A DNA stretch of 64,000 nt from an uncultured virus (IMG/VR IMGVR_UViG_3300025287_000001) (lineage: Duplodnaviria; Heunggongvirae; Uroviricota; Caudoviricetes): the IMG/VR virus record IMGVR_UViG_3300025287_000001, one strand, 5' to 3'. The notes under the pieces are model-generated. The model searched no databases. It was not told the DNA's origin and saw only the letters and a list, made by a program, of their open reading frames with translations. Below, piece after piece: positions 37,613 through 57,136 of the stretch. Position 1 is the stretch's first letter. Each line of letters opens with the position of its first letter. Both the position numbers and the translations under genes were made by a program.

Positions 37613-37624
37613 TTGTTACTCCTG

Positions 37625-41885: not shown

Positions 41886-42497
41886 ATGAAAAAACATGTG
41901 AAAAGAACCGAAGAAAACACAAATCAGGTTCAAGATAGTTGTTGGGGCGCGTTCCTCGATAGCCTTCTTTCCAGAGAAACCACGCTCTTTATGGAACAAG
42001 AGAAGGCTGAGATACAAGAGATGATAGCTTCCGGGGCTCTGGATGACCCGGACAAATTCATTTCTTACGCTTACTCTGTTATAAATAGGCGAAAAAGACG
42101 AATGGGCCTTACACTTGAGAAGCATTTAGAGTTTTTATTCAAGCTTGCTGGACTGGATTACACTTATCAGGATGAAGTAGGGCATCATGTTGTAGATTTT
42201 ACATTCCCGTCTTCGGCAAGCATTAGAGATGGAAAGCCTTATTACTATATGCTGAGTGTTAAGTCTACTTGCAACGATAGATGGAGAACGGCAACCAATG
42301 AGGCTACAGAATGTCAAAACAGGTATTTCTTTACTCTGGATGACAACATCCCTGTTAAATACACAGAGGAGATGCGCGATATCGGGTACACGATAGTGGC
42401 CCCGGAAAGCAATTTGGAGGCGTTGTCGGGGAGCGCCACAGAGGTTATAGGACTCTCTGAGTTTATCCGTAGGGTAAGGGAGGATTTTTCAGACTAA
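41886..42497 (+). CDS. EcoRII C-terminal-like type II restriction endonuclease domain
   Basis: NRRKRRMGLTLEKHL..DFTFPS..LSVKSTCNDRWR resembles the EcoRII catalytic RxxRxG..D..KxxxxxRW pattern. Confidence 0.8.
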   Translation: MKKHVKRTEENTNQVQDSCWGAFLDSLLSRETTLFMEQEKAEIQEMIASGALDDPDKFISYAYSVINRRKRRMGLTLEKHLEFLFKLAGLDYTYQDEVGHHVVDFTFPSSASIRDGKPYYYMLSVKSTCNDRWRTATNEATECQNRYFFTLDDNIPVKYTEEMRDIGYTIVAPESNLEALSGSATEVIGLSEFIRRVREDFSD

Positions 42498-42501
42498 AGG
42501 C

Positions 42502-42529
42502 TTGACCGGGGCGGAGCAGTGCATAGTTT
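42502..42529 (+). promoter_or_regulatory. Cassette-type promoter
   Basis: TTGACC-N16(ends GTGCA)-TAGTTT. Confidence 0.6.
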
Positions 42530-42575
42530 TGATTTCGGGACCGACACGAGACTTGACTGTGTTCACGAGGAAAAA

Positions 42576-42830
42576 ATGAAATTCCGTACAACTTTCACCC
42601 TTATTCTAATGCTCACCTTTGCTCCGTTTGTCCACTTGTTTGGTCGTTCGATGAAGATAATTCAAGTAGGAGAAGCTAGCGCTCTTACTACCTATAGCGC
42701 TTATTTTTTCGTAATTCTGGGTGTTGTTTTGATGTATATTGGCAGCTATACCGTCCTGTACTTGCTTTCCAAAAAAGGCTTTCTTGGGGAGAAATTGGAA
42801 GAGATGACTAAAGAGAAGGAAGTGAAATGA
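42576..42830 (+). CDS. Two-TM membrane protein
   Basis: GAGG SD before ATG 42576; two hydrophobic segments. Confidence 0.7.
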   Translation: MKFRTTFTLILMLTFAPFVHLFGRSMKIIQVGEASALTTYSAYFFVILGVVLMYIGSYTVLYLLSKKGFLGEKLEEMTKEKEVK

Positions 42831-43147
42831 TTATCAAGATGTATCACCCTGCAATGATTTCACTAAGAGAAGAATTTTCCAACAAGCAGTTTCACACAAA
42901 CTATACAGATGCAGTCTTGGAGAACGACGTGCCTCTTTATAGTTATGATCTTGATGGAGTAGAGGTCCATGAATCATTTCAGTATTTGGTTGCCTATGAA
43001 CAAATCTCTCTGGTTTTTGTAGACTTCGTTGTATTAGGCAAGCATCATGGTCAATGGGCCATAGAGGAGGTCGAAGATATTATGCGAAACATTTACGATG
43101 AGAATGGACAGATAAACCCTGATTACGCTTCAGAGATGCTATCTTAA
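42827..43147 (+). CDS. Hypothetical protein
   Basis: ATGA-coupled ORF. Confidence 0.65.
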   Translation: MIIKMYHPAMISLREEFSNKQFHTNYTDAVLENDVPLYSYDLDGVEVHESFQYLVAYEQISLVFVDFVVLGKHHGQWAIEEVEDIMRNIYDENGQINPDYASEMLS

Positions 43148-43785
43148 GGTTGCCCCTTCTTCAAGACCGAGAAGATGTTGTTTTTTCCAACTCTTATGAT
43201 GTTATCTATTCTTCCTAGTTCTTCTTCCGAAATAGAATCTCCGTGTGCCCATACTATGGATAAGTAATAAAAAGCCCCTTCGATATCAAGTAATTTCACC
43301 ACCTTGGACATCTTTATACCCTTAGATAAATAAAGGTTTCTTAGAATGCCTTCATCCATCTCATCTATGATTATCTGTGTCTCTCCGTGTTGCTTGACAT
43401 CCATCAACATGTGAATATATTGCTGATCGAGAGGTTGATCTTGCCAGCTTTTAAGCACAGACGTAGAAGAAGGGCCGTATACTTCATAGATTACACTGGA
43501 GTATAGTTTGCACCCAGGCCTTGGTATGCTGCCGCCGTTGCTGGCTTTTAGCAGGACGACGTGAGATGCGTTGCACTCTGCCATTATTTGGTTAAGATGG
43601 GAGAAGATTTTGGCAACTTCATTAATGACGTTGCCCATCTTCTCTCCTTTCTTATTATCTGATCTTTCTAATAGCCACTTCCAAAATGAAGTAATGGTGT
43701 TTAAGGTGCTTCCTGTAGTCAATATGCTAACAAGAATGATTATTATAACGCTCCAATTTGGTAGTGATGAAACTGCTTCCCACAT
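43144..43785 (-). CDS. N-terminal TM + GAF-like domain; putative T4 gpT-like holin
   Basis: GGAGGAG SD; one TM helix; NASHVVLLKASNGG..SSVIYEV motif. Confidence 0.55.
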   Translation of the reverse strand: MWEAVSSLPNWSVIIIILVSILTTGSTLNTITSFWKWLLERSDNKKGEKMGNVINEVAKIFSHLNQIMAECNASHVVLLKASNGGSIPRPGCKLYSSVIYEVYGPSSTSVLKSWQDQPLDQQYIHMLMDVKQHGETQIIIDEMDEGILRNLYLSKGIKMSKVVKLLDIEGAFYYLSIVWAHGDSISEEELGRIDNIIRVGKNNIFSVLKKGQP

Positions 43786-43864
43786 TTTTCTCCTCCGAAG
43801 TTGCTCCTCAAGTAAATGTCATGCTATAAGTATGAGCTAATAACTAAAAACTAGGTAAGTCACA

Positions 43865-44074
43865 ATGATTAATTCTCTTGTTTTTTCTAAAATACCGTAT
43901 TGCCCTAGAGTATTTCATTATAGAAACATGGCTTATAATATTTCTCTATCTAATCACCTAGAAGGATACAGTAACTATAATATAACCACTATGATTTACA
44001 ATTTATCTATTTACCATGTTTATCCCTTTATAAGGAGACAAGCCTTTATTAACTTTGAGGTATCGTATAAATGA
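43865..44074 (+). CDS. Mini-paralog array member
   Basis: MINSL start, 69 aa. Confidence 0.65.
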   Translation: MINSLVFSKIPYCPRVFHYRNMAYNISLSNHLEGYSNYNITTMIYNLSIYHVYPFIRRQAFINFEVSYK

Positions 44075-44277
44075 TTTTATCCACAGAAGCGATAGAGAAG
44101 ATAGGCAAAGAAGGAATCATCCTTTGCGATTTTATGATTCAAGATCTGAAGTACTGTCCTGAAAGTTATTGTATTGGCTTCGCATCTATAAGATATATCG
44201 CTCAAGATGTGTTTTCATGCGAAGATGTTTTCTCCCCTAGTTTGTTTGTCTTGTACCCGAGGATAGAGAGGATATGA
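44071..44277 (+). CDS. Mini-paralog array member
   Basis: MILS start, ATGA coupling. Confidence 0.65.
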   Translation: MILSTEAIEKIGKEGIILCDFMIQDLKYCPESYCIGFASIRYIAQDVFSCEDVFSPSLFVLYPRIERI

Positions 44278-44489
44278 TTAATCTCGCGTTCTCCTGCAAT
44301 GTGATTGATTCTGAAGATAGGCCTATGCTTGTAACCACTTACTTTGCGGGCGACAAGATGGGTCGGGATTTCATTCGAGATACTCGTGAAATAAACTTTT
44401 CAATCAATAACAAACTAGAACATTTTGTAGTGCCGGTGATTAACCTTATCATTCCGTGGGGCATAACCTATCATGGCAGGTCCAAATAA
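44274..44489 (+). CDS. Mini-paralog array member
   Basis: MINL..EDRPM. Confidence 0.7.
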   Translation: MINLAFSCNVIDSEDRPMLVTTYFAGDKMGRDFIRDTREINFSINNKLEHFVVPVINLIIPWGITYHGRSK

Positions 44490-44684
44490 ATGATTACATC
44501 TTCGACCTACAGTAAACTTGTTCATAGAGAGGATAGGTTCTTTAGTGTAGAATACTTGCATATGTTTACTAATTTAGACGTTGAAGCACCAAAGATACTG
44601 AGTAGACTAGACCTTTATCGCTCTATGGCGTTTTACGCATGCTTGAGTGTATATCGTCATCATGTTCAGGTGCTAGAGTTATGA
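44490..44684 (+). CDS. Mini-paralog array member
   Basis: MITS..EDRFF. Confidence 0.7.
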   Translation: MITSSTYSKLVHREDRFFSVEYLHMFTNLDVEAPKILSRLDLYRSMAFYACLSVYRHHVQVLEL

Positions 44685-44881
44685 TAATTTTATATCCGCA
44701 TAACTACACAAATGATTTGAAGACCAACATGATTTACTTCAAGCACGGAAGATCCGCCTTTTCCAGAGATCAGATATACATATCTGGAGATTTTTATCCT
44801 AATGTCTACTTTCACAGAATAGCAACTTATAGAATCACAAATGTGATACCACGAGAATTAGTTCTATGGAGGGTACAATAG
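44681..44881 (+). CDS. Mini-paralog array member
   Basis: MIILYP from ATGA-coupled start 44681. Confidence 0.65.
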   Translation: MIILYPHNYTNDLKTNMIYFKHGRSAFSRDQIYISGDFYPNVYFHRIATYRITNVIPRELVLWRVQ

Positions 44882-45073
44882 ATGAATACAGCTAGATCAA
44901 TTGTTTGCCTGGAACCATACGGTGAAAGACCTTGGTTGTGCAAGAGCCTTTCATACGACAAAAAGAGTTTTACAACAAGGTTCATTGATAAAGCTTGTTT
45001 ATACGGCATACACTTATTTTCGTTAGATTTTTTCTTTCAATATAATGTCAGGATTATAGAATATAAGAGGTAG
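44882..45073 (+). CDS. Mini-paralog array member
   Basis: MNTA..ERPW..FTTRF. Confidence 0.7.
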   Translation: MNTARSIVCLEPYGERPWLCKSLSYDKKSFTTRFIDKACLYGIHLFSLDFFFQYNVRIIEYKR

Positions 45074-45077
45074 AAAA

Positions 45078-45287
45078 ATGAATATATTAAAGCCGTATTG
45101 TTACTTCGCAGATAGTGACCACCTTCGCATGTACTACATTTACCCCTACAATGTTACTAGAAGGTTCACTACCAGGAAGTTTGAGTCTTGGCATTTGACT
45201 AACAGGTTTATTGCAGACAGTGCCTTGTCCAAGTTCATAGAGATTAGAATGACAGCAATAAAATACAACAAGGCCATGCATGATTAA
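45078..45287 (+). CDS. Mini-paralog array member
   Basis: MNILKP..FTTRKF. Confidence 0.7.
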   Translation: MNILKPYCYFADSDHLRMYYIYPYNVTRRFTTRKFESWHLTNRFIADSALSKFIEIRMTAIKYNKAMHD

Positions 45288-45477
45288 TTCAATTGGTGTT
45301 TGTTATATTGAGAATAGAAATGATAGGCCGTGGAAAGTTTTCTTTATGAGGGTACACCATGGGGATGATGGCATAGATGAGCAAAGATTCTTTCATTACT
45401 ATAACTTCTACCATTACAGTGCATTTGATATACCTGTCATAACAATAGATCGTCTTAGCATGTTCGAGAAAAAATGA
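45280..45477 (+). CDS. Mini-paralog array member
   Basis: MINSI..NDRPW. Confidence 0.7.
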   Translation: MINSIGVCYIENRNDRPWKVFFMRVHHGDDGIDEQRFFHYYNFYHYSAFDIPVITIDRLSMFEKK

Positions 45478-45905
45478 ATCTAGTAAAGCCAATAGTAGGA
45501 ATCGTAGGAAAAGATTTCTGGGTTCTAGACGGGAGGCACGTTATCAGAAGCTCGAAGAATATTAGATCAATGCAAACTGTTTATCTATATGGCACTCAAC
45601 CAACAAGCAATATCTGCCTTTACGATCTTACTGGAGATAGGGAGGAGCTATGGGGTCTTGCTAAGAATGCGTTGGTTGTACGAGACGCACGTCAAGAAGA
45701 TATAATGAAACTTAGAGAAGCAATTGCTACTGTTCTAAAAGAACAAAGCAAGTTTATTTCAATGAGGTCCTTGTTTTCTAAAGTTTTTAGAATGACAGGC
45801 CATAAGGAATCTTCATGCCATATTGAAGTTATGAAAATGGAAAACGAAGGCTTGGTAGAATATTCGATAGGCAGAAAAGTAAGGTTAGTTGGTAATGATG
45901 TATGA
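45474..45905 (+). CDS. Mini-paralog array member fused in frame to a winged-helix-like domain
   Basis: MNLVKP..KDFW then MKLREAIATVLKE..MENEGLVEYS. Confidence 0.6.
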   Translation: MNLVKPIVGIVGKDFWVLDGRHVIRSSKNIRSMQTVYLYGTQPTSNICLYDLTGDREELWGLAKNALVVRDARQEDIMKLREAIATVLKEQSKFISMRSLFSKVFRMTGHKESSCHIEVMKMENEGLVEYSIGRKVRLVGNDV

Positions 45906-46111
45906 TTAACATCAATAACTTTGGTGCTTTAGTAGAACGTCATGAAAAATTTTGGTGCGTTGTACCTTTGTTCTATAGGGGCATCGACAACAATCGAGAT
46001 AAATCCAGATCACCGTATGGAGCTGGTCGGTTGAGGTGGGAGATTTACAAGATTAATAGTAGAGATCTTATGGGCTTCGAGAGATTTAGGGCAATAATCC
46101 ACAACTGGTGA
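45902..46111 (+). CDS. Mini-paralog array member
   Basis: MININ..EKFWC. Confidence 0.7.
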   Translation: MININNFGALVERHEKFWCVVPLFYRGIDNNRDKSRSPYGAGRLRWEIYKINSRDLMGFERFRAIIHNW

Positions 46112-46115
46112 AAGT

Positions 46116-46322
46116 ATGAATATAGTGTTCCCCATTATATGCCTCAATGAAGATTCATTCTATGAACTTTCTTTAAGGTTTATCGCTGAGATTAGAGAGC
46201 CAACGAGACGGGTTCTTTTCGATTCACTACACACCACTTTGAAACCTAAATTTGATCTCTCTCCTATAATAACAATGAAGATACCGGAGATAATTGAGTT
46301 TGATATTTATTACAGGGAGTAA
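46116..46322 (+). CDS. Mini-paralog array member
   Basis: MNIVFP..EDSFY. Confidence 0.7.
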   Translation: MNIVFPIICLNEDSFYELSLRFIAEIREPTRRVLFDSLHTTLKPKFDLSPIITMKIPEIIEFDIYYRE

Positions 46323-46324
46323 CC

Positions 46325-46555
46325 ATGAATATACTTTCATCCTTGAAATTGGTAAAAGAAGACATTCACTGGAGTTTGTTTTTGATGTTTGGTAATTTAG
46401 ATTACACGCCTAATAGGATGAAGTCAGAAAGAGAATTTAGAAATCACATACACGGAAGTTTCTATCCCCCGAAACACTTCTTTAGGGCAACCACAGAAGT
46501 AAGATTTATGAACCTTACCTTTAATTCTAAGTTTCATTCTCTATATGATAGATAG
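46325..46555 (+). CDS. Mini-paralog array member
   Basis: MNILS..EDIHW. Confidence 0.7.
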   Translation: MNILSSLKLVKEDIHWSLFLMFGNLDYTPNRMKSEREFRNHIHGSFYPPKHFFRATTEVRFMNLTFNSKFHSLYDR

Positions 46556-46727
46556 AGATTCCCTAAAGTGCATAATCATTTCTCTAATTGTAAGTCTTGC
46601 AATTATTGTGGCATCAGTTACTGCTCATGATACAAGATTTGCGATTAAACTAAGAACTGCCTTCTATGGCAAAGAAATAACCAAGAGCCAACAACATGAT
46701 TGTAATCAGGCCAGCCAAAGCCATTGA
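46545..46727 (+). CDS. Small membrane protein (non-family insert)
   Basis: Hydrophobic CIIISLIVSLAIIVASV. Confidence 0.55.
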   Translation: MIDRDSLKCIIISLIVSLAIIVASVTAHDTRFAIKLRTAFYGKEITKSQQHDCNQASQSH

Positions 46728-46998
46728 TAGAGAAGGGTGCTGGGTCTTTTACAGGATATATCCCTACTATTCTGAATTGGAACGAAGAGTGTCAAGGAAT
46801 ATATTCAATATGCCCTCATCTCTGCTAGGGATCACTTCACTGTCGGGAATGGCAACACTCTTTGCCCCTTCCTTTAATATGCAGCTTATGATATTTGCTA
46901 GACATACAATCAAGTCTGGTGCTGCTGCGTCGATCAGCGAAGCTGTTGGCGGGCAAAAAGGAAAAGAGATCATGAAGTCCTTCGAGAATCTTCAATAA
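46696..46998 (+). CDS. Mini-paralog array member with C-terminal extension
   Basis: MIVIRP..EGCW..IYPY. Confidence 0.65.
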   Translation: MIVIRPAKAIDREGCWVFYRIYPYYSELERRVSRNIFNMPSSLLGITSLSGMATLFAPSFNMQLMIFARHTIKSGAAASISEAVGGQKGKEIMKSFENLQ

Positions 46999-47090
46999 AA
47001 ATAAGAGAGAACTATGAAAATGTTAATTGATAGGATAACCCAAGAAGAGATCGCAACGGAAATGAACAAAACCGCCATGGAGAATCTTCA

Positions 47091-47462
47091 ATGTCTTTTG
47101 CTAAAGTGAAATTTAATTTTCATCTGGAACCATGCGAGTCTCTTGTTGATAATGGCCCTGAGGCGCGCGCGAAAAGCCTCAAAAGGCAACGTTTCTGGGC
47201 CGCTGTGAGGCGCGAAGCATGGGAAGTGAGGGAAGGGTCGCCTGAGAGATTCGAGGCTCTCCTGGGGCTTCTCGGGGACAACGGCAAGTTGCCTTGCGGA
47301 AAAATTTCTTGCACTTGTATGAAATGTACGCAGATTAGTTGTCCGTGGGGCGAGCCATTCCATTGGGATGCTGATGGGTGCCCTTCTTGCTTCGAATATG
47401 AACAAGAAGAGTTTGATGCTCTTTTCGAAGGACATGACACACCTTATCTTTGCCGTGAATGA
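47091..47462 (+). CDS. Cys-rich hypothetical protein (non-family insert)
   Basis: GC-richer codons; CxCxxC and CPSC motifs. Confidence 0.65.
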   Translation: MSFAKVKFNFHLEPCESLVDNGPEARAKSLKRQRFWAAVRREAWEVREGSPERFEALLGLLGDNGKLPCGKISCTCMKCTQISCPWGEPFHWDADGCPSCFEYEQEEFDALFEGHDTPYLCRE

Positions 47463-47465
47463 AGG

Positions 47466-47678
47466 ATGATCACTTCCAAGCCTGCTGATAATGTGCCTAG
47501 ACTTAGTTTTCGCAAAATAATCTACAAATATATAAGTTACTCTTGGAAGACAGTCGATATTAGTAATCATAGATTTATTTATGATCTCTTCGTGGAATGC
47601 TATGGAGGAGGGTACGCGAGCAATTCTTATGACTTGATAATTTTCACGGTATCAAGAAAATGTTCGATCTTGGATTAG
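47466..47678 (+). CDS. Mini-paralog array member
   Basis: MITSKP, 70 aa. Confidence 0.7.
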   Translation: MITSKPADNVPRLSFRKIIYKYISYSWKTVDISNHRFIYDLFVECYGGGYASNSYDLIIFTVSRKCSILD

Positions 47679-47682
47679 CAAA

Positions 47683-47898
47683 ATGAATACAATATTAGCA
47701 TCGAAAAACATACTAGAGTTGACTTTCTGGAATTGTTATCACTTCTTTGATAATGAACCCAGGAAAGTCGTTGGGATAGCAAGAGAATTGTATCTTCCTG
47801 TAGAATATCTGTATTCAGGTGTTAATTCGGATGCAGATCTATTTCTCTCTCGGACTACGACTCTTCGAGTAACGAAGATTGCGAGGCGAAGAGAGTGA
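47683..47898 (+). CDS. Mini-paralog array member (FWxCxY subfamily)
   Basis: MNTI..TFWNCYHFF. Confidence 0.75.
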   Translation: MNTILASKNILELTFWNCYHFFDNEPRKVVGIARELYLPVEYLYSGVNSDADLFLSRTTTLRVTKIARRRE

Positions 47899-48110
47899 AC
47901 TTAGTATTACCTTTCACCGATGTAGGCGAAATCTCTTTCTGGTCATGTGACTACACTTTCAAACAGGTCAAGGAAATTTCCAGAATCTCGAGAAGATCTA
48001 TACTCACGAAGGCTTATGGCGATATGGGCATTTATTATGCTTGGTGCCTTATGAACCTGACTACAAATAGGCGTGTGACAATAAAATACAACAAGAAGTA
48101 TACATTATGA
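47895..48110 (+). CDS. Mini-paralog array member (FWxCxY subfamily)
   Basis: GTG start; SFWSCDYTF. Confidence 0.75.
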   Translation: MNLVLPFTDVGEISFWSCDYTFKQVKEISRISRRSILTKAYGDMGIYYAWCLMNLTTNRRVTIKYNKKYTL

Positions 48111-48325
48111 TTAGATCTCTAAACTTAAAGGATGTAGTGGGTAATGATAGGTTCTGGGGTTGCAACTATATGTTTAGCGTCATGCACCAAAATCCCGCCG
48201 AAAGCTATTTGACAACATTCAAGGTTCTGCACGAAATAGGCTCTTGGGGCGATATGCCTGGGACTGATAGAGATTTGTTTTATCGGTGCGTCCACTTGAG
48301 GGTGACGGGCTTGTGGGCAATGTGA
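48107..48325 (+). CDS. Mini-paralog array member (FWxCxY subfamily)
   Basis: DRFWGCNYMFS. Confidence 0.75.
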   Translation: MIRSLNLKDVVGNDRFWGCNYMFSVMHQNPAESYLTTFKVLHEIGSWGDMPGTDRDLFYRCVHLRVTGLWAM

Positions 48326-48540
48326 TGATTATATCAAAACCAGTGCAAATTGCGGTCCCTTTTGCTGATAGAGACTGGTCGCTTAAGTACCATCACTTGG
48401 GACCGAATAACTCCATCTCTAATAAGTTATCATATGGATATTTTCATTCTTACCTGCTTCATGATTTAGGTGCTATTGATGAAATGGTCCTCAAGTATCT
48501 TTTGCTTAACGACATGGTAAAACTTAGGCCATCATTATGA
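48325..48540 (+). CDS. Mini-paralog array member
   Basis: MIISKP..DRDW from ATG 48325. Confidence 0.7.
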   Translation: MIISKPVQIAVPFADRDWSLKYHHLGPNNSISNKLSYGYFHSYLLHDLGAIDEMVLKYLLLNDMVKLRPSL

Positions 48541-48770
48541 TTATTTCCATACCATCAAACTATCTTAAGGCTAATCAAACAGGGAGTTGCTTCATAGTCG
48601 TAATTCATGAATACTCATACGAACAATATCACTACTCCAGAAAGGTTAATCAAGATCCTTTTTTCTTTCACATGATTAATTCTTCAAATGACTTGCTTAA
48701 TGATCATGTGCCATTTAGAAACTTGATTAAAATAAAAATCTGCAAACTAGCATGGCATCTAGGGGACTGA
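48537..48770 (+). CDS. Mini-paralog array member
   Basis: MIISIP, ATGA coupling. Confidence 0.65.
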   Translation: MIISIPSNYLKANQTGSCFIVVIHEYSYEQYHYSRKVNQDPFFFHMINSSNDLLNDHVPFRNLIKIKICKLAWHLGD

Positions 48771-48771
48771 G

Positions 48772-48981
48772 ATGATTTTGCTAAGGCCATCATGGCGCAT
48801 AACCAGAGAAAGTGGTGCATTCAACATGAGTTCTGCTTATTGGTCCGAGACCAAAGATGAAAGCATCAACACAAGATTCTTTTTCAGGATCGCAAAAGAT
48901 ATCAACTGGACATCTATGATGCTTAAGGTTGAGATTTTGGGTAGAAAAAGATCTTCAATTATCCCTAACGAAATGTCTTGA
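48772..48981 (+). CDS. Mini-paralog array member
   Basis: MILLRP..ITRE..NTRFF. Confidence 0.7.
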   Translation: MILLRPSWRITRESGAFNMSSAYWSETKDESINTRFFFRIAKDINWTSMMLKVEILGRKRSSIIPNEMS

Positions 48982-48983
48982 GA

Positions 48984-49178
48984 ATGAATGTAATAAAACC
49001 ATTTTATTGTATAACAAAGAGCAACAAAGATTTTTACTACCTTGTCTATCTGCTGCCTTCAGGACGAAAGGCTTTTGAGATCTCGACGAGAGATGCCCAG
49101 GAATTAAGACAGCTGCAAGGATATCCCTTGTGGCTTTTTGTATTCGATGCCACCTGTTTGTTGAAATTCCGCCATTAG
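48984..49178 (+). CDS. Mini-paralog array member (YxLW subfamily)
   Basis: MNVIKP..KDFY..YPLW. Confidence 0.7.
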   Translation: MNVIKPFYCITKSNKDFYYLVYLLPSGRKAFEISTRDAQELRQLQGYPLWLFVFDATCLLKFRH

Positions 49179-49182
49179 ACCC

Positions 49183-49210
49183 TTGACCCACTCCCAGTCG
49201 TGCATACGTT
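49183..49210 (+). promoter_or_regulatory. Cassette-type promoter inside the mini-gene array
   Basis: TTGACC-N16(ends GTGCA)-TACGTT. Confidence 0.7.
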
Positions 49211-49258
49211 ATTAGCAGGACGGAAACGGCAAACAAATAAAACCAAGGGAGCAGGCGA

Positions 49259-49534
49259 ATGTCAGATTCGAAAAGCGAAGCATGGTCGATGGAAATCAAG
49301 TACGATCAGTATGCAATCTTCACAAAGGACTTCAATAAGAAATACCCAGAGAAACGAATCCACGCCATTGATCTCAAAAGTGTAACGGGTATGTTTAGCA
49401 CTCATGTAGAAAGCCCTCATAGGGAAAAGGGCCTGACAGACGTTGTTATCGCCGTGCTCGATAGCCAGATGAGCATGCAGATTTCTTCAGAAGATTGGTC
49501 TGAACTGTTTCACAAGTGGATGATAGTGAGGTAA
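49259..49534 (+). CDS. Hypothetical protein (non-family insert with own promoter)
   Basis: GGGAG SD; 91 aa. Confidence 0.7.
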   Translation: MSDSKSEAWSMEIKYDQYAIFTKDFNKKYPEKRIHAIDLKSVTGMFSTHVESPHREKGLTDVVIAVLDSQMSMQISSEDWSELFHKWMIVR

Positions 49535-49545
49535 GGAGACATGTC

Positions 49546-49758
49546 ATGATATCTCTGGAGGCTTTTCACAACGCGATAATGGTGAGTTCTGCGCTTGCAC
49601 AAAGCCCGATATATTTTTCCACTACGATTAATGCGCAAACTTGGAGGTTTGCGCAAACAAGAAACCGCCTTAACCATATAACCCTTCAAGGGTATGACTT
49701 GTGGACCTTTAACAGACACAGAATTACAACACTAAATGCAACAACGATATTCCTATAA
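49546..49758 (+). CDS. Mini-paralog array member (YxLW subfamily)
   Basis: MISLEAF..GYDLWTFNRHR. Confidence 0.7.
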   Translation: MISLEAFHNAIMVSSALAQSPIYFSTTINAQTWRFAQTRNRLNHITLQGYDLWTFNRHRITTLNATTIFL

Positions 49759-49953
49759 ATGAAAGACTATAATAGCAGCGTAGCGGTGGATTCTATTTCT
49801 GTTACGATAGATGAAGTTGAAATCCTGAAGAGCAAATTTACAGGAAAGCTCGACATAAGCCAAGTAAGTTTGTGCGATGAGAAGTATATTCTCTTTTTCG
49901 ATGCAAACTTGAAAGAAGAGATCGAGAAAGCCCTGGGGCGGCACGATCCTTAG
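49759..49953 (+). CDS. Hypothetical acidic protein (non-family insert)
   Basis: Abutting ORF, different composition. Confidence 0.6.
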   Translation: MKDYNSSVAVDSISVTIDEVEILKSKFTGKLDISQVSLCDEKYILFFDANLKEEIEKALGRHDP

Positions 49954-49968
49954 CGCGAGAGGCGGCAA

Positions 49969-50169
49969 ATGATAATAGCACTACCGTTTAAATTCTCAGA
50001 GGAAATGCCTCGGAAGACATACCTATATCCCATGGAGACCAATCTCAAGAGCATTGAAATTTACACTTCTCAATTTTATCAATACTTGTATGCGGGCGGA
50101 CACTTAAAGAATAGATATTACTACTTTGAGATTATCAGTAGAAAAATAATGATGTTATCGAGGACTTGA
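49969..50169 (+). CDS. Mini-paralog array member
   Basis: MIIALP, 66 aa. Confidence 0.65.
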   Translation: MIIALPFKFSEEMPRKTYLYPMETNLKSIEIYTSQFYQYLYAGGHLKNRYYYFEIISRKIMMLSRT

Positions 50170-50170
50170 T

Positions 50171-50374
50171 ATGATAACATCAGATAAGCTTAACTTTATT
50201 GTGTCTTACAGGCATAGTGCTCTCAAGCTGTATATCGTGCAAGCAGTTTCAAGGAAAGGAACGGAAGATCTGGAAAGGTTCCTTGTCCCCGGAGAAATTT
50301 ACGATGATTACTATCTCTGGGCCTTTACGAGAGATAGGGTCTTCATTTCTGATGTTATCTTGAGGAACCTATGA
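50171..50374 (+). CDS. Mini-paralog array member (YxLW subfamily)
   Basis: ERFLVPGEIYDDYYLWAFTRDR. Confidence 0.75.
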   Translation: MITSDKLNFIVSYRHSALKLYIVQAVSRKGTEDLERFLVPGEIYDDYYLWAFTRDRVFISDVILRNL

Positions 50375-50565
50375 TTATCTTGCAGCAAGCCTACCGAGCC
50401 ACGAGAGAGGGCGTGACGATTTTGCAGTTCCACACGATATACACCACTAACGAAAACTTCGAGATTCACAGGAAGTGCATAGCCATCAACGAATCGTTTA
50501 GCGGATATAGTTTATCTTCCGTAATTATCTCCAAACAAACTTTTAGGCTGAAGCCATTAGGGTAA
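50371..50565 (+). CDS. Mini-paralog array member
   Basis: MIIL..TREGVTILQF. Confidence 0.7.
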   Translation: MIILQQAYRATREGVTILQFHTIYTTNENFEIHRKCIAINESFSGYSLSSVIISKQTFRLKPLG

Positions 50566-50567
50566 CA

Positions 50568-50759
50568 ATGATCAACACACATATGTTTTACTCATTCACT
50601 GGCGAAGGCGTGAGTATACTGTACTTTTCGATCTTGCGCAACGACATTGGCTTTCTACCAATAAAACAGAGGAGACCACATCCAAGTTACTTGAACAAGC
50701 ACGATCTTTTTTTCCTGACCTATTCCGATAGTGTTTTAAAAATAGTAGGAAGGAAATGA
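50568..50759 (+). CDS. Mini-paralog array member
   Basis: MINT..TGEGVSILYF, similar to previous gene. Confidence 0.7.
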   Translation: MINTHMFYSFTGEGVSILYFSILRNDIGFLPIKQRRPHPSYLNKHDLFFLTYSDSVLKIVGRK

Positions 50760-50953
50760 TAAAAGCAGAAAGTTTGCTAAGGGTGCTTGAATCCGTCAAC
50801 GAAGCAAGGCCATGGGCTCTGCTATCTACTCATCAAGTGTGCGAAAAAAGCATTATAAGCCTAGAGAGGGATTTCGTTCCTCCTGTTGTTGCCAGGGATT
50901 ACAGTGTTTGGCTTATCACAAGAACAAGATTCTTAATACTGGCAAAGTCTTAG
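50756..50953 (+). CDS. Mini-paralog array member (YxLW subfamily)
   Basis: MIKAES..RPW..YSVWLITRTRFLIL. Confidence 0.75.
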   Translation: MIKAESLLRVLESVNEARPWALLSTHQVCEKSIISLERDFVPPVVARDYSVWLITRTRFLILAKS

Positions 50954-50963
50954 GAGGTTATGA

Positions 50964-51173
50964 ATGATAAGAGCAGAAGGCGCAGGGTATATATTCGATT
51001 CGGAAAGAGGTCCGAAGCTGTGGGTGCTTTGCACAATCCGGGCTTATGACAGCAAAGCCAATATAAATGTTCGAAGAGAATTTATTCATGGTGAAGTAAT
51101 CCCGTCATATGATTTATGGGTTTTGCTAAGGACGAGATTTGCGATCCTTGAGGTGACGAGAGAATACAGGTGA
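50964..51173 (+). CDS. Mini-paralog array member (YxLW subfamily)
   Basis: MIRAEG..YDLWVLLRTRFAIL. Confidence 0.75.
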   Translation: MIRAEGAGYIFDSERGPKLWVLCTIRAYDSKANINVRREFIHGEVIPSYDLWVLLRTRFAILEVTREYR

Positions 51174-51177
51174 AGAC

Positions 51178-51432
51178 ATGCTAAGTGTACTAAGTTTAAC
51201 TATTATCCCTTCAACCGTTCGCGGTGAGCTTAAGTGGGTGGCGTATTCTCCTACAGTGTTCAGGGAACAAGGTGAATTGCTGGAAAATGATGTACGCAGG
51301 CGATTTGTGCCCAGAGTAGTTGTTGAGAGTATAAACCTGCGGAAGGTTATCTTGACAAGGTTTATACTGATAGAATACTCAGAAAAATTCTGGCCTCGGT
51401 ACAAGTCTTTTATGAGCAAATCATACAGGTGA
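51178..51432 (+). CDS. Mini-paralog array member
   Basis: LKW..RRRFVP..TRFILIE. Confidence 0.7.
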   Translation: MLSVLSLTIIPSTVRGELKWVAYSPTVFREQGELLENDVRRRFVPRVVVESINLRKVILTRFILIEYSEKFWPRYKSFMSKSYR

Positions 51433-51436
51433 AGAG

Positions 51437-51670
51437 ATGATCAACTTAATGCAGGTAAAGAATCTAGGGGATGCTCGCTTTTGGGAGTGTTATTACATGT
51501 TTGCTAATTCAGTACACGATAAGAGGATAAACAGCGACAGGACCATATTAACGCTTTATCTTTGGAATGGCTTAAAGCATTCTGATATGATCTTCTTTAT
51601 CAGATTGATTCCCATGAAGAGAACAACCCTGCGTTATGACAATAATATAAAAATGAGGACAATGCCGTGA
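51437..51670 (+). CDS. Mini-paralog array member (FWxCxY subfamily)
   Basis: MINLMQVKNLGDARFWECYYMF. Confidence 0.8.
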   Translation: MINLMQVKNLGDARFWECYYMFANSVHDKRINSDRTILTLYLWNGLKHSDMIFFIRLIPMKRTTLRYDNNIKMRTMP

Positions 51671-51852
51671 TAAATTTCAACGCCTTTAATCGTATAGATC
51701 CGCCCGGAAAATTTTGGTACTCATATTCCCCTGGCGGAGTTTGCATGCCAATGTTGAAGAGGGGCTTCGATTCAGTTGAAATTATAAGAAATTTTGATTT
51801 GTGGGTTATAACAAGTGACAGAACCAGACTTTTTCGCATCAAGAGAAAGTAA
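51667..51852 (+). CDS. Mini-paralog array member (YxLW subfamily)
   Basis: GKFW..FDLWVITSDR. Confidence 0.7.
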   Translation: MINFNAFNRIDPPGKFWYSYSPGGVCMPMLKRGFDSVEIIRNFDLWVITSDRTRLFRIKRK

Positions 51853-52080
51853 ATGATAAACTCAATGCAAGTAAAGAGCCTGGGAGATGATCGCCTTTGG
51901 GGGTGCAGTTATATGTTCAGCCATTACCCTCCTCCTAAAGAGTCTACTGAATCATTAAATGTAATGTTGATTTATGATTGTTGCGGCATAGATGTCGCTG
52001 GACGAAGGGTACTAGAGAGATTAATAGCAACATGGCATCTGAGACTTAGGTATTCTCCATGGTTAGCTCAATGCAAGTAA
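51853..52080 (+). CDS. Mini-paralog array member (recent triplication)
   Basis: MINSMQVKSLGDDRLWGCSYMFSH..ERLIATWH. Confidence 0.8.
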   Translation: MINSMQVKSLGDDRLWGCSYMFSHYPPPKESTESLNVMLIYDCCGIDVAGRRVLERLIATWHLRLRYSPWLAQCK

Positions 52081-52259
52081 AGAGCCTGGAGGATGGTCGA
52101 TTTTGGGGGTGCAGTTATATGTTCAGCCACTTTGCGGCTCCTGAAGTTTCCACTGAAACACCTATCATAACGGAAATTTATTATTATTGCGGCGTCGATA
52201 GTATATTGCTGGAGAGATTAATAGCAACATGGCACATGAGGCTTAGGACAATTTTATGA
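52059..52259 (+). CDS. Mini-paralog array member (recent triplication)
   Basis: MVSSMQVKSLEDGRFWGCSYMFSH..ERLIATWH. Confidence 0.8.
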   Translation: MVSSMQVKSLEDGRFWGCSYMFSHFAAPEVSTETPIITEIYYYCGVDSILLERLIATWHMRLRTIL

Positions 52260-52471
52260 TTAACTTAATGCAAGCAAAGAGCCTGGAGGATGGTCGATTT
52301 TGGGATTGCGGCTATATGTTCAGTCACTATTTCGCTCCTGAGATTTCCGTTGAATCGCATAATATATTATTACTCTATGGCAGATGTGGCATGGATATTG
52401 TTGGACGAAGGGTTCTCGAGAGAGCAATAGCAACATGGCACCTGGATTTCTTTTATAGAAGGAAGAAATGA
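52256..52471 (+). CDS. Mini-paralog array member (recent triplication)
   Basis: MINLMQAKSLEDGRFWDCGYMFSH..ERAIATWH. Confidence 0.8.
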   Translation: MINLMQAKSLEDGRFWDCGYMFSHYFAPEISVESHNILLLYGRCGMDIVGRRVLERAIATWHLDFFYRRKK

Positions 52472-52707
52472 TAAACACAAACAATATTAAACTTCTTCTG
52501 AGCCTGGATGAAAGATTTTGGAAAGCTTCAATGTATAAACCTTCACACTTATCCACCAGCCCCGAGGTAAGAAGGTCTAGTACAATCGAGATAAATATCC
52601 TCGGTGATTATAAGATATGGGGCGTTGTGGATGGGAGGCTACATTTCTTGAATAAAAATAAAGGATATTACTATGAGGCCAAAATCATTGTTAAGTGGGA
52701 TTCGTGA
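52468..52707 (+). CDS. Mini-paralog array member
   Basis: MINT..SLDERFW..YKIW. Confidence 0.75.
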   Translation: MINTNNIKLLLSLDERFWKASMYKPSHLSTSPEVRRSSTIEINILGDYKIWGVVDGRLHFLNKNKGYYYEAKIIVKWDS

Positions 52708-52916
52708 TGATAAAATCAGAAGGCCTGGATTTCGCGCTAGAATCGGAAGATGCTGAAATACCATGGGATATTTATTATCTTGTCAGCTTTCATAGAGATG
52801 GACATAAAGACAATGTTAGAGGTAGCATCTACAGTAATCTGATTTCACAATATCCCCTGTGGGTACTCATAAGGACAAGGTTTTTATTGCTGGAGTTCAA
52901 TGGGCACGACTGGTGA
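52707..52916 (+). CDS. Mini-paralog array member (YxLW subfamily)
   Basis: MIKSEG..IPW..YPLWVLIRTRFLLLE. Confidence 0.75.
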   Translation: MIKSEGLDFALESEDAEIPWDIYYLVSFHRDGHKDNVRGSIYSNLISQYPLWVLIRTRFLLLEFNGHDW

Positions 52917-53280
52917 AGGTGGAAAGGTCTGAGGTGAAAAATAAGGCCTGAGACAAAGAATATGGGTTGAAGTGAAAAAGGTTTGAGGCAAAAAAATATG
53001 GGCGCGTTGTGGAGGGGCTATACCCGATTTGAGAGGGTCGCTTCCCTGTAGGGCTGAGATAGATTCCGGGGAGGGGGAGGGGGCCGCTTTTCGACTTCAA
53101 GCAAAAAGTTTTTTCTTTGTAAATATATTCTTTTCTTACAGCAATAAACACATCTTGAAGCAAGTCAAGCAAAAAGAAAGTTTGAGATAATCGCTTGACT
53201 CTAATGCTGTCGGTCTTAGATTCATATTGTCGGTCGGGGATATACCTCGACCCTGGTTTTTCTCTTTCTGGAGGACTGTA

Positions 53281-53544
53281 ATGACGAAGCGTGAGCTTCA
53301 ACAACACGTCGTAGACCTGCTCAAGCAGGCTATTGACGGCGCTGTCCAAGACGGTGCCATCTTCATGGCAGAGGGTTACGTTGATGTAACTGTCTACCTT
53401 ACCAGCCACGGCTACTGGTCGTGGTCCTTCCGAGGTAGCGAGTCCCTCTCTGTTGAGGAGAGCGAGTGCGTTACCTCCACCATCCAGGCGAACTGGGGCT
53501 CGCTCGCTCCAGAGCCCGTTGATCCTGAGTGCGCTTACTACTGA
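53281..53544 (+). CDS. Cassette hypothetical protein
   Basis: GGAGG SD; ATG 53281 after promoter. Confidence 0.75.
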   Translation: MTKRELQQHVVDLLKQAIDGAVQDGAIFMAEGYVDVTVYLTSHGYWSWSFRGSESLSVEESECVTSTIQANWGSLAPEPVDPECAYY

Positions 53545-53618
53545 GCGCGAGGGGCTAACCCTGCCCCGGCTAATCACCGGGGGGCGGGGGCCGCTCCGCT
53601 GCCCCCATGAGCACCCCC

Positions 53619-53681
53619 TAAGCACATGCCAGCTCGAGTCAAGCAGAAAGTTTGATAAGCACATGCCAGCTCGAGTCAAGC
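53619..53681. repeat. 27-bp direct repeat TAAGCACATGCCAGCTCGAGTCAAGCA x2
   Basis: Two exact copies 36 bp apart; related copies near 53145 and 54306. Confidence 0.85.
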
Positions 53682-53784
53682 AAAAAAGAAAGTTGAGAAA
53701 AATGCTTGACCCTAAGCGATGCGTTATTAGATTATATACTGTCAGCGGGGAGAGTGGCTCCCCTCGATAAACAGGAGAGGAAAA

Positions 53785-54027
53785 ATGACGAACGAAGAAA
53801 GACGAGAGGCTCTCAAAGGCCTCGCACCTGAAGAGAGGAAAGCCAAGGTCAAGCGCGCTCACGAACGCTTGAAAGAAAAGGGTGTAAAGACCCGCATCGG
53901 GCGCAAAGGCTTCGAGTTGGGTTACGGGTATAACTACCGCAACCCTGAATATGCATCGCGAGCATTCGCAGCGGTATGTTCGCACTACGGATTAGTCAAG
54001 ACGGACGGCATCACATGGCATGCCTGA
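53785..54027 (+). CDS. Cassette basic protein
   Basis: GGAGAGG SD after promoter and leader hairpin. Confidence 0.75.
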   Translation: MTNEERREALKGLAPEERKAKVKRAHERLKEKGVKTRIGRKGFELGYGYNYRNPEYASRAFAAVCSHYGLVKTDGITWHA

Positions 54028-54139
54028 CCTGACCAGCGGACCTAAGCAAGTCAAAAAACTGCTTGACTCTACTTCAATCGTGCCTAACTTTAATAGTAAG
54101 GAAGGGGGTTGGCTCCTTCCGCAACAACCGGAGAATATC

Positions 54140-54244
54140 ATGGTCGCTATCGCTACTGTCGTCGCTATCTGCTCGCTTGGCTTGTGCTGTACCGCTCCCC
54201 TCATCGCGGGCGGCGAGCCCGCCTGGGCTCGCGAGCAGGACTGA
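54140..54244 (+). CDS. Cassette 34-aa membrane peptide
   Basis: GGAG SD; MVAIATVVAICSLGLCCTAPLIAGGEPAWAREQD. Confidence 0.65.
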   Translation: MVAIATVVAICSLGLCCTAPLIAGGEPAWAREQD

Positions 54245-54433
54245 ACCCCAAGGGCCGAAGGGCTCCCCCTCCGGGGGGCGGGGGCCGCTCCGCTGCCCCC
54301 TGCGATAAACACATGCCAACATAAGTCAAGCAGAAAATAAATCTGAGAAAAGCGCTTGACCTTCGCCGCCTCGCCACTAGATTTGTATTGTCAGCGGGGA
54401 GAGTGGCTCCCCTCGACAAACAGGAGGAACGAT

Positions 54434-54931
54434 ATGAACAGCATCGACAACACGTTTGAGGAAGTCAAGGCACACCATACAGAGCACGCTCCTTGCGAGG
54501 ATATATGGATTCGAGAGTGGAGCCACGAAGAGGTTATGCGCTCGCGCTGTGAGTCGCTCGCGTCGTATGCGCGAGCGCACCAGCACCGCGAAGGGTTCGG
54601 CTACAACGAGGTCATTGACGCAATGACAGAAGTTATCGCAGAGGTATTGCCGCCAATGGCAGTGACCTTCGAGGAAATGCAGGACCTCCGCCGCTTGCGT
54701 GGGTGGCACTGGTTCTATTACCCCTCAATCCTCCAACGAGACGAGGGCGACGAGGGGAGCGATGAGGTCCGAATCATTACGCCTAGCGCTCCCAGTGAAG
54801 CGGCGCTGATGGCACAGGCAGGCTATCGCGTTACATATGTCGATGATACCATCTTTATCATCGACGGCATGGTGGAGCCCCGCGCGCTCCCCTACGAGGC
54901 ATACGGCGAGCAGGGCTACCGTATCAGGTAG
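54434..54931 (+). CDS. Cassette hypothetical protein
   Basis: AGGAGG SD; ATG 54434. Confidence 0.75.
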   Translation: MNSIDNTFEEVKAHHTEHAPCEDIWIREWSHEEVMRSRCESLASYARAHQHREGFGYNEVIDAMTEVIAEVLPPMAVTFEEMQDLRRLRGWHWFYYPSILQRDEGDEGSDEVRIITPSAPSEAALMAQAGYRVTYVDDTIFIIDGMVEPRALPYEAYGEQGYRIR

Positions 54932-54990
54932 ACCCAACCCGGATAGAGAGTGCCCCCTCCGGGGGCCGCCCCCCACTTGGGGGCACTTCC

Positions 54991-55122: not shown

Positions 55123-55161
55123 GATAACCTCTTGTGATTAGTGTTCTATGTCAACACTTAT

Positions 55162-57130: not shown

Positions 57131-57136
57131 CGAACA

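Follow-up and report, generated by a model that had tools for sequence, protein, structure and literature searches.

The window (the whole 64,000-nt stretch analysed, from an uncultured marine phage, a myovirus with a genome unit of ~185 kb) contains at positions 43865–52916 a real protein-coding array. Forty small plus-strand ORFs (m01–m40, curated list) tile this 9-kb region, which accounts for about 5% of the genome. The region is considered protein-coding because dN/dS among the closest copies (m36, m37, and m38) was 0.28–0.56 and an AGG Shine–Dalgarno (SD) core preceded 26 of the 40 starts. According to leave-one-out profiles, 22–31 of the ORFs appear to form one diverged superfamily, and among the collections searched this tandem multigene family was restricted to this marine phage. 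We give about even chances to a lineage-restricted family expansion whose small, mostly basic products act early, in host interaction or counter-defence, and are encoded in two coupled operons. We infer that the array products are probably early host-interaction proteins.

The original prediction described ~36 tandem same-strand mini-genes, mostly of 60–85 aa. The array itself was confirmed, with 40 curated genes rather than ~36, and 36 of them fell within this size range (the remaining four are 91, 100, 123, and 143 aa long). Plus-strand ORFs of at least 55 aa covered 98.2% of the region vs. a mean of 14.8% and a maximum of 28.5% in 200 first-order Markov simulations; minus-strand ORFs of the same minimal length covered 35%. 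Unit length was regular, mostly 190–230 nt. The 39 junctions comprised 13 ATGA overlaps, which bears out the frequent overlaps of this type reported earlier, two 1-nt overlaps, four other overlaps, four directly abutting pairs, 14 gaps of 1–15 nt, and two large gaps (92 and 80 nt).

The AGG core was located at −17 to −5 of the 26 starts. At random positions 7.1 were expected, and none of 1,000 simulations reached 26; the statement that the ORFs mostly lack a clear SD was therefore wrong. Twenty-three of the cores lay within the upstream ORF, 17 of them as in-frame Arg codons. An A directly followed the start codon in 36 of the 40 ORFs, and the 5′ sequence ATGAT(T/A)AA was conserved. The genes appear packed for translational coupling, and the SD of many genes is an in-frame AGG (Arg) codon among the last codons of the preceding gene. 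C-terminal Arg codons doubling as the ribosome-binding site of the next gene would make the coupling signals copyable with each duplication.

The pattern CTTGNC-N10-15-GTGNNTANNTT, resembling an extended −10 promoter, had 16 matches in the window vs. 0.07 expected. On the plus strand, matches were found at 42501, 43393, and 49182, plus 12 in the 54–64 kb region. The first of these early-type motifs (42501–42529, CTTGAC-N12-GTGCATAGTTT) lies upstream of a 106-aa ORF (42827–43147), and its match to the consensus suggests a promoter. The second (43393–43421) precedes the first array gene by 444 nt, lies within and antisense to a minus-strand 213-aa ORF (43144–43785), and may drive the array. The third (49182–49210) occupies the 80-nt gap before m24 and is followed by a strong SD (AAGGGAG). 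These three motifs upstream of or inside the array suggest two long, translationally coupled early operons. From the ORF list and paralogy, and for the first also from the junctions, the proposed operons would span m01–m23 (43865–49178, plus strand) and m24–m40 (49259–52916, plus strand), each behind a sigma-70-like extended −10 promoter of the class that also precedes the neighbouring GC-rich early-region genes. The array lies directly upstream of the promoter-dense 54–64 kb region on the same strand. Its codon usage resembled that of the AT-rich late genes (ATA share of Ile codons: 40% in the array, 44% in the late genes, and 15% in the GC-rich early ones), and expression could therefore be middle or late. 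Both early timing and operon structure are what we infer from these motifs.

Two subfamilies intermixed along the array, as predicted, were recovered. Subfamily A (FWxCxYMF) has seven plus-strand members: m17 (47683–47898), m18 (47895–48110), and m19 (48107–48325) in the first part of the array, and m34 (51437–51670), m36 (51853–52080), m37 (52059–52259), and m38 (52256–52471) in the second. Subfamily B (YxLW..RTRF) has eight, also on the plus strand: m08 (45280–45477) in the first part, and m28 (50171–50374), m31 (50756–50953), m32 (50964–51173), m33 (51178–51432), m35 (51667–51852), m39 (52468–52707), and m40 (52707–52916) in the second. Within A and B, phmmer pairs reached E-values down to 1.6e-28, and growth of the B profile ended at its eight members with zero decoys among 440. 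Judged by these comparisons, each subfamily is solid. Profile-supported plus-strand singletons in the first part were m06, m07, m10, m11, m12, m14, m16, m20, and m23. In leave-one-out profiles, 25 of the 40 ORFs scored above every one of their 100 shuffles, and the scores of 31 were reached by at most 6 of 100. The best of 164 control ORFs (50–110 aa, from the window) scored 9.5 bits against the all-40 profile and the next 5.4; leave-one-out scores exceeded 9.5 bits in 22 members and 5.4 bits in 30. Mean column identity over 29 aligned members was 16%, in agreement with the very low pairwise identity noticed at first. Between A and B, hhalign aligned the N-terminal 24 columns alone (P 0.0029, probability 10.6%), and the direct link between the subfamilies is weak.

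The proposed common scaffold held in its N-terminal pattern. Residue 2 was I in 27 and N in 8 of the 40 proteins, with the start of m05, m20, m23, m25, and m40 set at an internal ATG over the longest ORF, a choice which favours the MI/MN pattern. Residue 6 was P in 12 proteins, and residue 10 was hydrophobic in 32, with the register kept gap-free in most. Residue 12 was acidic in 17, with Glu in only nine. Beyond it, the conserved positions included W16, alternating hydrophobics at residues 18, 20, and 22 (33, 30, and 29 of 40, respectively), a central R, and the C-terminal motifs. The scaffold did not extend to nine ORFs, indistinguishable from their own shuffles: m01, m02, m05, m09, m13, m15, m24, m26, and m30. 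By leave-one-out scores, m01–m05 and m20–m30 were barely recognisable as family.

About nine array ORFs are probably unrelated inserts. The 143-aa m09 (45474–45905, plus strand) combines a family-like N-terminus (MNLVKPIVGIVGKDFW) with an extra C-terminal half; its leave-one-out score was reached by 8 of 100 shuffles, which is not significant, and its score against the A+B profile by 1 of 200. Against Pfam it gave sub-threshold matches only. The 60-aa m13 (46545–46727, plus strand), a non-member (leave-one-out rank 13 of 100), is the sole array protein with a membrane-span-like hydrophobic segment (maximum 19-residue Kyte–Doolittle mean 2.74). The acidic 123-aa m15 (47091–47462, plus strand) has nine Cys, follows the 92-nt gap, and lies in a local GC island (50.7% GC in 47200–47499); its leave-one-out score was not significant, and it is an unrelated gene lying within the array. 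Unrelated small genes inserted among the paralogs would include the C-terminal half of m09, m13, m15, m24, and m26.

Pairwise similarity decreased with separation along the array (mean z 4.15 for neighbours, 2.45 two apart, and 0.28 five apart). This trend, together with the significant similarity within A and B, fits serial tandem duplication, as had been proposed. On this view, a single ~68-aa ancestor would have been duplicated locally time and again, with its copies then diverging deeply, to give a minimum of 22, probably about 30, of the 40 ORFs. The closest copies shared 56–61% amino-acid identity and are under purifying selection. Along the gene, their dN/dS rose from 0.22 (N-terminal 24 codons) through 0.41 (middle) to 0.60 (C-terminal part); since it stayed below 1 in every segment, no signal of positive selection was found at this coarse level. 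The array was identical, with 0 differences, in contigs of four other metagenome runs from four studies, and nothing therefore points to an arms race still under way or to changes in copy number.

The array proteins were mostly basic (pI above 8 in 27 of 40, median 9.0) and aromatic-rich (5–20%, at least 11% in 36 of 40). Compared with late proteins, C, H, W, and M were 2.6–3 times more frequent and D and E were depleted, and the GC1>GC2 contrast was weaker than in late genes. AlphaFold2 with a 29-paralog alignment gave pLDDT values of 59.3 and 62.7 with pTM 0.32 in both models; the secondary-structure strings of m32 and m36 differed, both being of low confidence. An ESM Atlas model had pLDDT 0.43, and Foldseek returned nothing at E ≤ 0.001. 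The claim of one small shared fold stays unproven because the AlphaFold2 models are of low confidence (pLDDT 59–63), with no Foldseek match and an A–B alignment of just 24 columns.

No named family had been recognised initially, and this was sustained in every library and collection searched. Among 1.84 billion representative proteins, the B profile retrieved only the window's own 11 sequences and one spurious repeat protein, and among 5.8 billion the A profile retrieved only the window's own seven. Searching 50,697 phage records by tblastn with m32 and m36 gave no match, and neither did scanning IMG/VR and 185,579 species genomes for motifs. Pfam, PHROGs, NCBIfam, and PADLOC gave nothing at E ≤ 0.01 for any of the 40 ORFs, the PADLOC defence-system models included (0 of 40); weak Pfam and PHROGs matches (E 0.012–0.1, below Pfam cut-offs) were to unrelated families or functionally uncharacterised PHROGs. 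By one rarity criterion, tiling 50–100-aa ORFs formed runs of up to 17 here vs. 6 in 99 other marine phage loci (1.62 Mb), and four related contigs had no runs of at least five.

T-even phages carry a handful of internal-protein genes, and a capsid-targeting sequence consists of the N-terminal ~10 residues ending in an (L/I)-x-E prohead-protease site. PMC3012670, the source of the capsid-targeting concept, describes the T-even internal proteins (IPI, IPII, IPIII, and the variable ip locus) as small, basic, very diverse products of adjacent genes, with a conserved N-terminal segment, acting against host defence nucleases. The array proteins are likewise small, mostly basic, diverse, encoded side by side, and conserved in an N-terminal segment; unlike the internal proteins, they have no sequence match, their conservation continues beyond the first ~10 residues, and the copy number (20–30 or more) is far above that in T-even phages. 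The host-takeover module of Bacillus phage SPO1 has early-type promoters with good ribosome-binding sites. It is a contiguous set of about two dozen small early genes shutting down host processes (10.1101/569657). The array similarly has 40 small same-strand genes behind early-type promoter motifs (43393 and 49182; motif evidence only). However, the SPO1 genes are not described as mutual paralogs in the abstract of 10.1101/569657, whereas most array genes appear to share one ancestor. No PHROG match linked the array ORFs to SPO1 gp37–gp60. Anti-CRISPR and anti-defence islands of phages group small ORFs with little or no mutual similarity, often early and without detectable homologs, usually a few genes plus a regulator (aca). 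Unlike them, the array has 40, mostly paralogous, genes, none of which could be confidently assigned as an HTH regulator. To our knowledge, small early phage genes of unknown function are abundant and rarely mutual paralogs. Genomic accordions, the tandem amplification of small host-antagonist genes (poxvirus K3L; T4 and T6 segments with anti-defence genes), are described as an adaptive route (PMC13359090; 10.1101/2022.04.14.488369; PMC13096335). Accordion copies are recent, near-identical, and variable in number, whereas the array copies are ancient and unchanged across the four runs. A recent accordion was rejected on the identity of the closest copies and this lack of differences; if the array was once an accordion, it would be a fixed and diversified end state.

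A somewhat unlikely alternative is that at least two unrelated small-protein families and unrelated singletons resemble each other only through shared constraints, namely the 5′ initiation context, a 3′ SD for the next gene, and AT-rich composition. The A-only profile placed just one of eight B members, and the B-only profile two of seven A members, above all 200 shuffles; the low hhalign probability and the differing low-confidence secondary-structure strings of m32 and m36 point the same way, and the 17 of 23 in-frame AGG cores partly explain the C-terminal Arg motif. However, a profile of B plus singletons recovered six of seven A members above all 200 shuffles, and iterative growth from B reached 17 members, including five of seven of A, with decoys at no more than 8.1 bits. 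The window controls, matched in size and composition, did not exceed 9.5 bits, and the initiation context leaves unexplained the register at residues 6, 7, 10, 12, and 16–22. It is doubtful that the array is a gene nursery of decaying duplicates, under weak or no selection and with little current function. The lack of a confident fold and of relatives, the odd amino-acid composition, the weak GC1>GC2 contrast, and the barely recognisable stretches m01–m05 and m20–m30 would suit it, but none of the 40 tiling frames is broken, SD cores are retained at 26 starts, and dN/dS among the youngest copies is 0.28–0.56. Moreover, 9 kb of useless DNA, about 5% of a 185-kb genome, would be unlikely under packaging limits.

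Injected internal proteins of the T-even style are rather improbable. The products would have in common mainly an N-terminal signal for capsid targeting or processing, be packed in the head, undergo trimming by a prohead protease, and enter the cell along with the DNA, where they would inactivate host nucleases. This agrees with small, mostly basic products, with the N-terminal ~24 residues being the most conserved and the only part aligned between A and B, with the gap-free register (residue 10 hydrophobic in 32, residue 12 acidic in 17), and with the T4-type baseplate genes (gp25, gp6-like) and gp55-like late sigma factor of this phage. Against it are conservation extending past residue 12 to W16, residues 18/20/22, the central R, and the C-terminal motifs, Glu at position 12 in only nine proteins, no PHROG similarity (T4 internal-protein families included), promoter motifs of the early class, and the location of head genes and any prohead protease outside the window. 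That the ORFs are incidental and the functional unit is a nucleic-acid repeat (RNA or DNA, about 205 nt) is very improbable. Regular unit length and the conserved 5′ ATGAT(T/A)AA would favour it; it was disfavoured on the bias of closest-copy differences to synonymous sites, the 98% one-strand open-frame tiling, unexpected for an RNA element, and Rfam matches in the window to three tRNAs only, and the DNA repeat finder reported within the array only recent paralogs (D1, D6).

The products are small, mostly basic, aromatic-rich, and soluble. According to the preferred reading, in which a lineage-restricted family has expanded, they would most likely form a diversified set of early proteins that interact with the host, for take-over or counter-defence; the anti-defence inhibitors, decoys, or host-protein binders suggested at first are candidate functions. 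An unlikely, more specific version sees a repertoire in which one ~68-aa scaffold has been amplified and diversified into about 30 copies. Every copy would match its own variant of a host target that is polymorphic, e.g., a defence nuclease or sensor. In the scaffold, the N-terminal module would be constant and the middle and C-terminal parts variable; the copies could be made in an early burst from both coupled operons or, should the N-terminal module serve as a head-targeting signal, arrive ready-made in the capsid.

The array is an unusually clear case of phage gene-family expansion. If its proteins are functionless, it would offer a rare view of viral gene birth and decay. If the repertoire reading is true, no larger counter-defence arsenal built from a single family would have been described in a phage, and the array would also be a natural mini-binder library. 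Copies with distinct targets would illustrate how a phage derives many host-directed inhibitors from one small scaffold, and would provide a ready panel for anti-defence screens.

Forty small ORFs (m01–m40, in order) were curated on the plus strand, tiling positions 43865–52916; in five of them an internal ATG matching the common start was chosen. Products of 60–85 aa are encoded by 36 of the 40. The array, originally described as about 36 mini-genes, had been largely correctly observed. ORFs of at least 55 aa covered 98.2% of the plus strand, compared to a mean of 14.8% and a maximum of 28.5% in 200 Markov simulations, and 35% of the minus strand over the same region. ATGA overlaps joined the genes at 13 of 39 junctions, and at 37 the neighboring genes overlapped or stood no more than 15 nt apart; the two larger gaps were 92 nt before m15 and 80 nt before m24. 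By one run-length criterion, the longest run of small ORFs was 17 in the window and at most 6 in 99 other marine phage loci (1.62 Mb), and no run of 5 or more was detected in four related contigs. The three closest copies, m36, m37, and m38, were 56–61% identical with dN/dS of 0.28–0.56. The ratio rose along the gene, from 0.22 over the N-terminal 24 codons through 0.41 in the central segment to 0.60 in the C-terminal one. The proteins were mostly basic (pI > 8 in 27/40), with an aromatic content of 5–20% (11% or more in 36/40). The array is a real and unusual feature, for which the evidence of paralogy and coding is solid.

An AGG core was located at positions −17 to −5 before 26 of the 40 starts. 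At random positions 7.1 would be expected, and 26 was reached in none of 1,000 simulations; therefore, the claim that the genes mostly lack a clear Shine–Dalgarno (SD) sequence does not hold. Of 23 cores lying within the preceding ORF, 17 were in-frame Arg codons, so that part of the C-terminal Arg motif also serves as the ribosome-binding site of the next gene.

Both of the proposed subfamilies were recovered by phmmer: family A, with the FWxCxYMF motif (m17, m18, m19, m34, m36, m37, and m38), and the core of family B, with the YxLW..RTRF motif (m28, m31, m32, m33, m35, and m40). The family B profile brought in m08 and m39 with no decoys among 440 reversed or shuffled sequences, extending the family to eight members; m10, m23, and m25 were marginal to it. 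Decoy-limited growth from family B reached 17 members, including 5/7 of family A. The direct link between the two families was weak. Only the N-terminal 24 columns were aligned by hhalign (P 0.0029, probability 10.6%); 2/7 A members were recognised by the B-only profile and 1/8 B members by the A-only profile. With a profile of family B plus the singletons, 6/7 A members scored above all 200 shuffles.

In a leave-one-out test, in which each protein was compared with the profile of the other 39 against 100 shuffles keeping the first four residues, 25 of the 40 scored above every shuffle, six more were matched by no more than six shuffles, and nine were not distinct. The best and second-best control scores against the all-40 profile were 9.5 and 5.4 bits (164 ORFs of 50–110 aa from the same window); leave-one-out scores exceeded these values in 22 and 30 members, respectively. 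Our reading is that about 22–30 of the 40 proteins represent one deeply diverged superfamily, membership not being proven for each. The proposal of paralogy was supported for this portion and not for the nine proteins indistinguishable from shuffles. We read m13 (membrane-like), m15 (Cys-rich), m24, m26, and possibly others as unrelated genes embedded in the array.

The N-terminal register was gap-free, with Ile or Asn at residue 2 in 35/40, Pro at residue 6 in 12/40, a hydrophobic residue at position 10 in 32/40, and an acidic one at position 12 in 17/40. Residues 18, 20, and 22 were hydrophobic in 33, 30, and 29 of 40. Mean pairwise z decreased with separation along the array, from 4.15 for neighbors to 2.45, 1.27, and 0.28 at separations of 2, 3, and 5, the pattern expected from serial local duplication, in agreement with the original prediction.

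AlphaFold2 models built with a 29-paralog alignment had pLDDT of 59.3 for m32 and 62.7 for m36 (pTM 0.32 each). In both low-confidence models the Trp motif is directly followed by a strand, with a helix at about residues 48–60 and a further strand at about 60–66; model confidence is too low for a fold call. Foldseek searches with these models against BFVD and PDB, which carry little weight given the poor models, returned nothing at E ≤ 0.001, and the 29-member alignment, run as a profile against PDB, had no matches at E ≤ 10. No usable feature match for either protein came from the ESM Atlas, and the Atlas structure matches of m32 were set aside, the underlying model having a pLDDT of 0.43. 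Prediction of an m36 homodimer (score 0.03, mark 0.42) gave no answer either way. The predicted sharing of one fold was thus left unproven by the m32 and m36 models.

Searches for relatives agreed with the view that no named family is involved: none of the 40 proteins had a credible match in Pfam, PHROGs, NCBIfam, or PADLOC (nothing at E ≤ 0.01). The family A profile retrieved only the window's own seven sequences from 5.8 billion clusters; these seven occur on up to 27 contigs (JGI, ENA, and Logan). From 1.84 billion representatives, the family B profile retrieved only 11 sequences belonging to the window itself, plus a single repeat protein of low complexity. Neither tblastn against phage records nor scanning of species genomes and IMG/VR for the motifs turned up array relatives. 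Judged by sequence, the array family is an orphan, and literature searches yielded no description of either the array or the phage.

The window belongs to an uncultured marine phage. Positions 1–43785 encode minus-strand tail and baseplate proteins as well as other proteins, including gp25, a gp6-like wedge, a gp55-like late sigma factor, PhoH, a PD-(D/E)XK nuclease, and proteins of 3474 and 2020 aa. Laminin_G_3 (concanavalin-like) domains were matched in the 3474-aa (6123–16547, minus) and a 963-aa protein (37625–40516, minus), both probably giant adhesins of the tail fibre or baseplate. A 3529-aa counterpart of the former, with gene order preserved, is encoded on a related 90-kb contig in IMG/VR. 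Weak Pfam rows to zinc-metallopeptidase-like families, under the curated cut-offs, were obtained for 32184–32825 and 40513–41049 (both minus): ATLF scored 21.4 bits (cut-off 27.4), and Tox-MPTase2 and Peptidase_M76 each scored about 17 bits. At about 34470–34830 (minus), upstream of ORF 34151–34468, a unit of about 43 nt (CTATAGAGACTCTAGAAGAAGTAGAAAGATTACTAGAATAAGAA) is repeated in tandem, with at least 2.5 copies.

Among cultured phages, Flavobacterium phage immuto came closest in the baseplate wedge protein (30.7% amino-acid identity), followed by Microcystis phage Mel-JY01 at 29.4%. In the part of the immuto genome covered here, the 50 kb ahead of the last 110 kb, no comparable array occurs. 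Baseplate relatives in IMG/VR were marine contigs with about 41% identity, and the family B profile found nothing in five of their records. No A or B member was detected at 80 loci of PhoH relatives (about 40% identity), and megablast of the array and the 3474-aa gene against 50,697 phage records gave no match. Among the related contigs, G001 shares the tail-module gene order and stops short of any array, and G002–G004 had no run of small ORFs. A further matched contig, high-GC and actinophage-like, was rejected as a chance match.

Part or all of the array was present in 15 marine metagenome runs, and no RNA run was among the carriers listed. The 20 kb around it matched three sites of a 630,638-bp metagenome contig without differences, spaced by 185,083 and 185,127 bp; the genome unit is therefore about 185 kb and the contig a concatemer-like assembly. 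Contigs from four other runs of four studies were identical across the array and hence offered no variation for population dN/dS. Over the 20 kb compared (36001–56000), they had only two base differences, both outside the array, and three 1-nt insertions or deletions near 54.1 kb, all in a single contig. Summed contig depth over 53.3–56 kb was about twice that of the array in all four runs, and one contig joint skipped 53713–55318; both are likely assembly effects of repeated promoter and leader elements.

Downstream of the array, positions 53000–64000 look like a promoter-dense early region with a composition unlike the rest of the phage (GC 46–62% vs. 38–41% elsewhere). There, an extended −10 promoter motif of the sigma-70-like form CTTGaC-N~12-GTGcnTAcATT precedes each of the small and medium plus-strand genes. 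These genes also have in common a conserved leader carrying the strong SD AGTGAGGAAGGGAG, together with a GC hairpin (GCCCCTCCGGGGGCCGCC) present in nine copies; no hairpin copies were found inside the array. Two early genes, 57572–57964 and 59996–60439 (both plus), encode paralogous proteins (BLASTP E 3e-7, 26% over 87 residues) that by eye look like winged-helix DNA binders; the second, the one of the pair that was scanned, had no family match, and m09 had no significant similarity to either.

The pattern CTTGNC-N10-15-GTGNNTANNTT matched 16 times in the window (0.07 expected): 12 times on the plus strand in 54–64 kb, once on the minus strand, and on the plus strand at 42501, 43393, and 49182. 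Just before the motif at 42501 lies a gene (41886–42497, plus) whose 203-aa product contains an EcoRII C-terminal nuclease domain (Pfam E 2.4e-30); the gene overlaps a 159-aa minus-strand ORF. The motif at 43393–43421 is 444 nt upstream of m01, within minus-strand ORF 43144–43785 (213 aa, N-terminal hydrophobic segment, no relative in IMG/VR), so that an early transcript heading for the array would run antisense to this ORF. The motif at 49182 occupies the gap before m24 (49259–49534, plus), which also has a strong SD. Following the other large gap, m15 (47091–47462, plus) is acidic and lies in a 50.7% GC island. Both look like GC-rich early-type genes inserted into the AT-rich array.

From these motifs we infer two long early operons, m01–m23 and m24–m40. 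Early timing calls for caution because array codon usage resembles that of the AT-rich late genes: the share of ATA among Ile codons was 40% in the array and 44% in the late genes, compared with 15% in the GC-rich early genes. The GC-rich region carries tRNA-Leu(TAA) (57137–57211), tRNA-Ile(TAT) (60894–60967), and tRNA-Met (61043–61115), and its tRNAs for AUA and UUA could let the AT-rich array genes be translated. Together with the ATA usage, this location suggests that phage tRNAs serve AT-rich genes in a host richer in GC. The T4 late promoter TATAAATA was not enriched in the window (3 matches vs. 4.4 expected), and no late promoter was derivable from the few minus-strand intergenic regions.

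The closest analogies to the array are T-even internal proteins (PMC3012670), the SPO1 host-takeover module (10.1101/569657), and genomic accordions (PMC13359090; also 10.1101/2022.04.14.488369 and PMC13096335). With no sequence match to any of them, the likeness is one of analogy rather than membership. T-even internal proteins are described in PMC3012670 as diverse anti-restriction proteins with only an N-terminal targeting sequence in common. In the array proteins, conservation is strongest in the N-terminal module, the only part common to families A and B. We consider it improbable that the array encodes proteins of this kind. Accordion copies are recent and variable, whereas the array copies are old and fixed; this, together with the lack of a sequence match, sets the array apart from these three systems.

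The original reading of one fold duplicated into a repertoire of candidate anti-defence proteins, decoys, or binders is plausible. On sequence grounds, the array is most likely a lineage-restricted expansion of a small, mostly basic protein, whose copies would be expressed from coupled operons, probably acting on components of the host at an early stage of infection.
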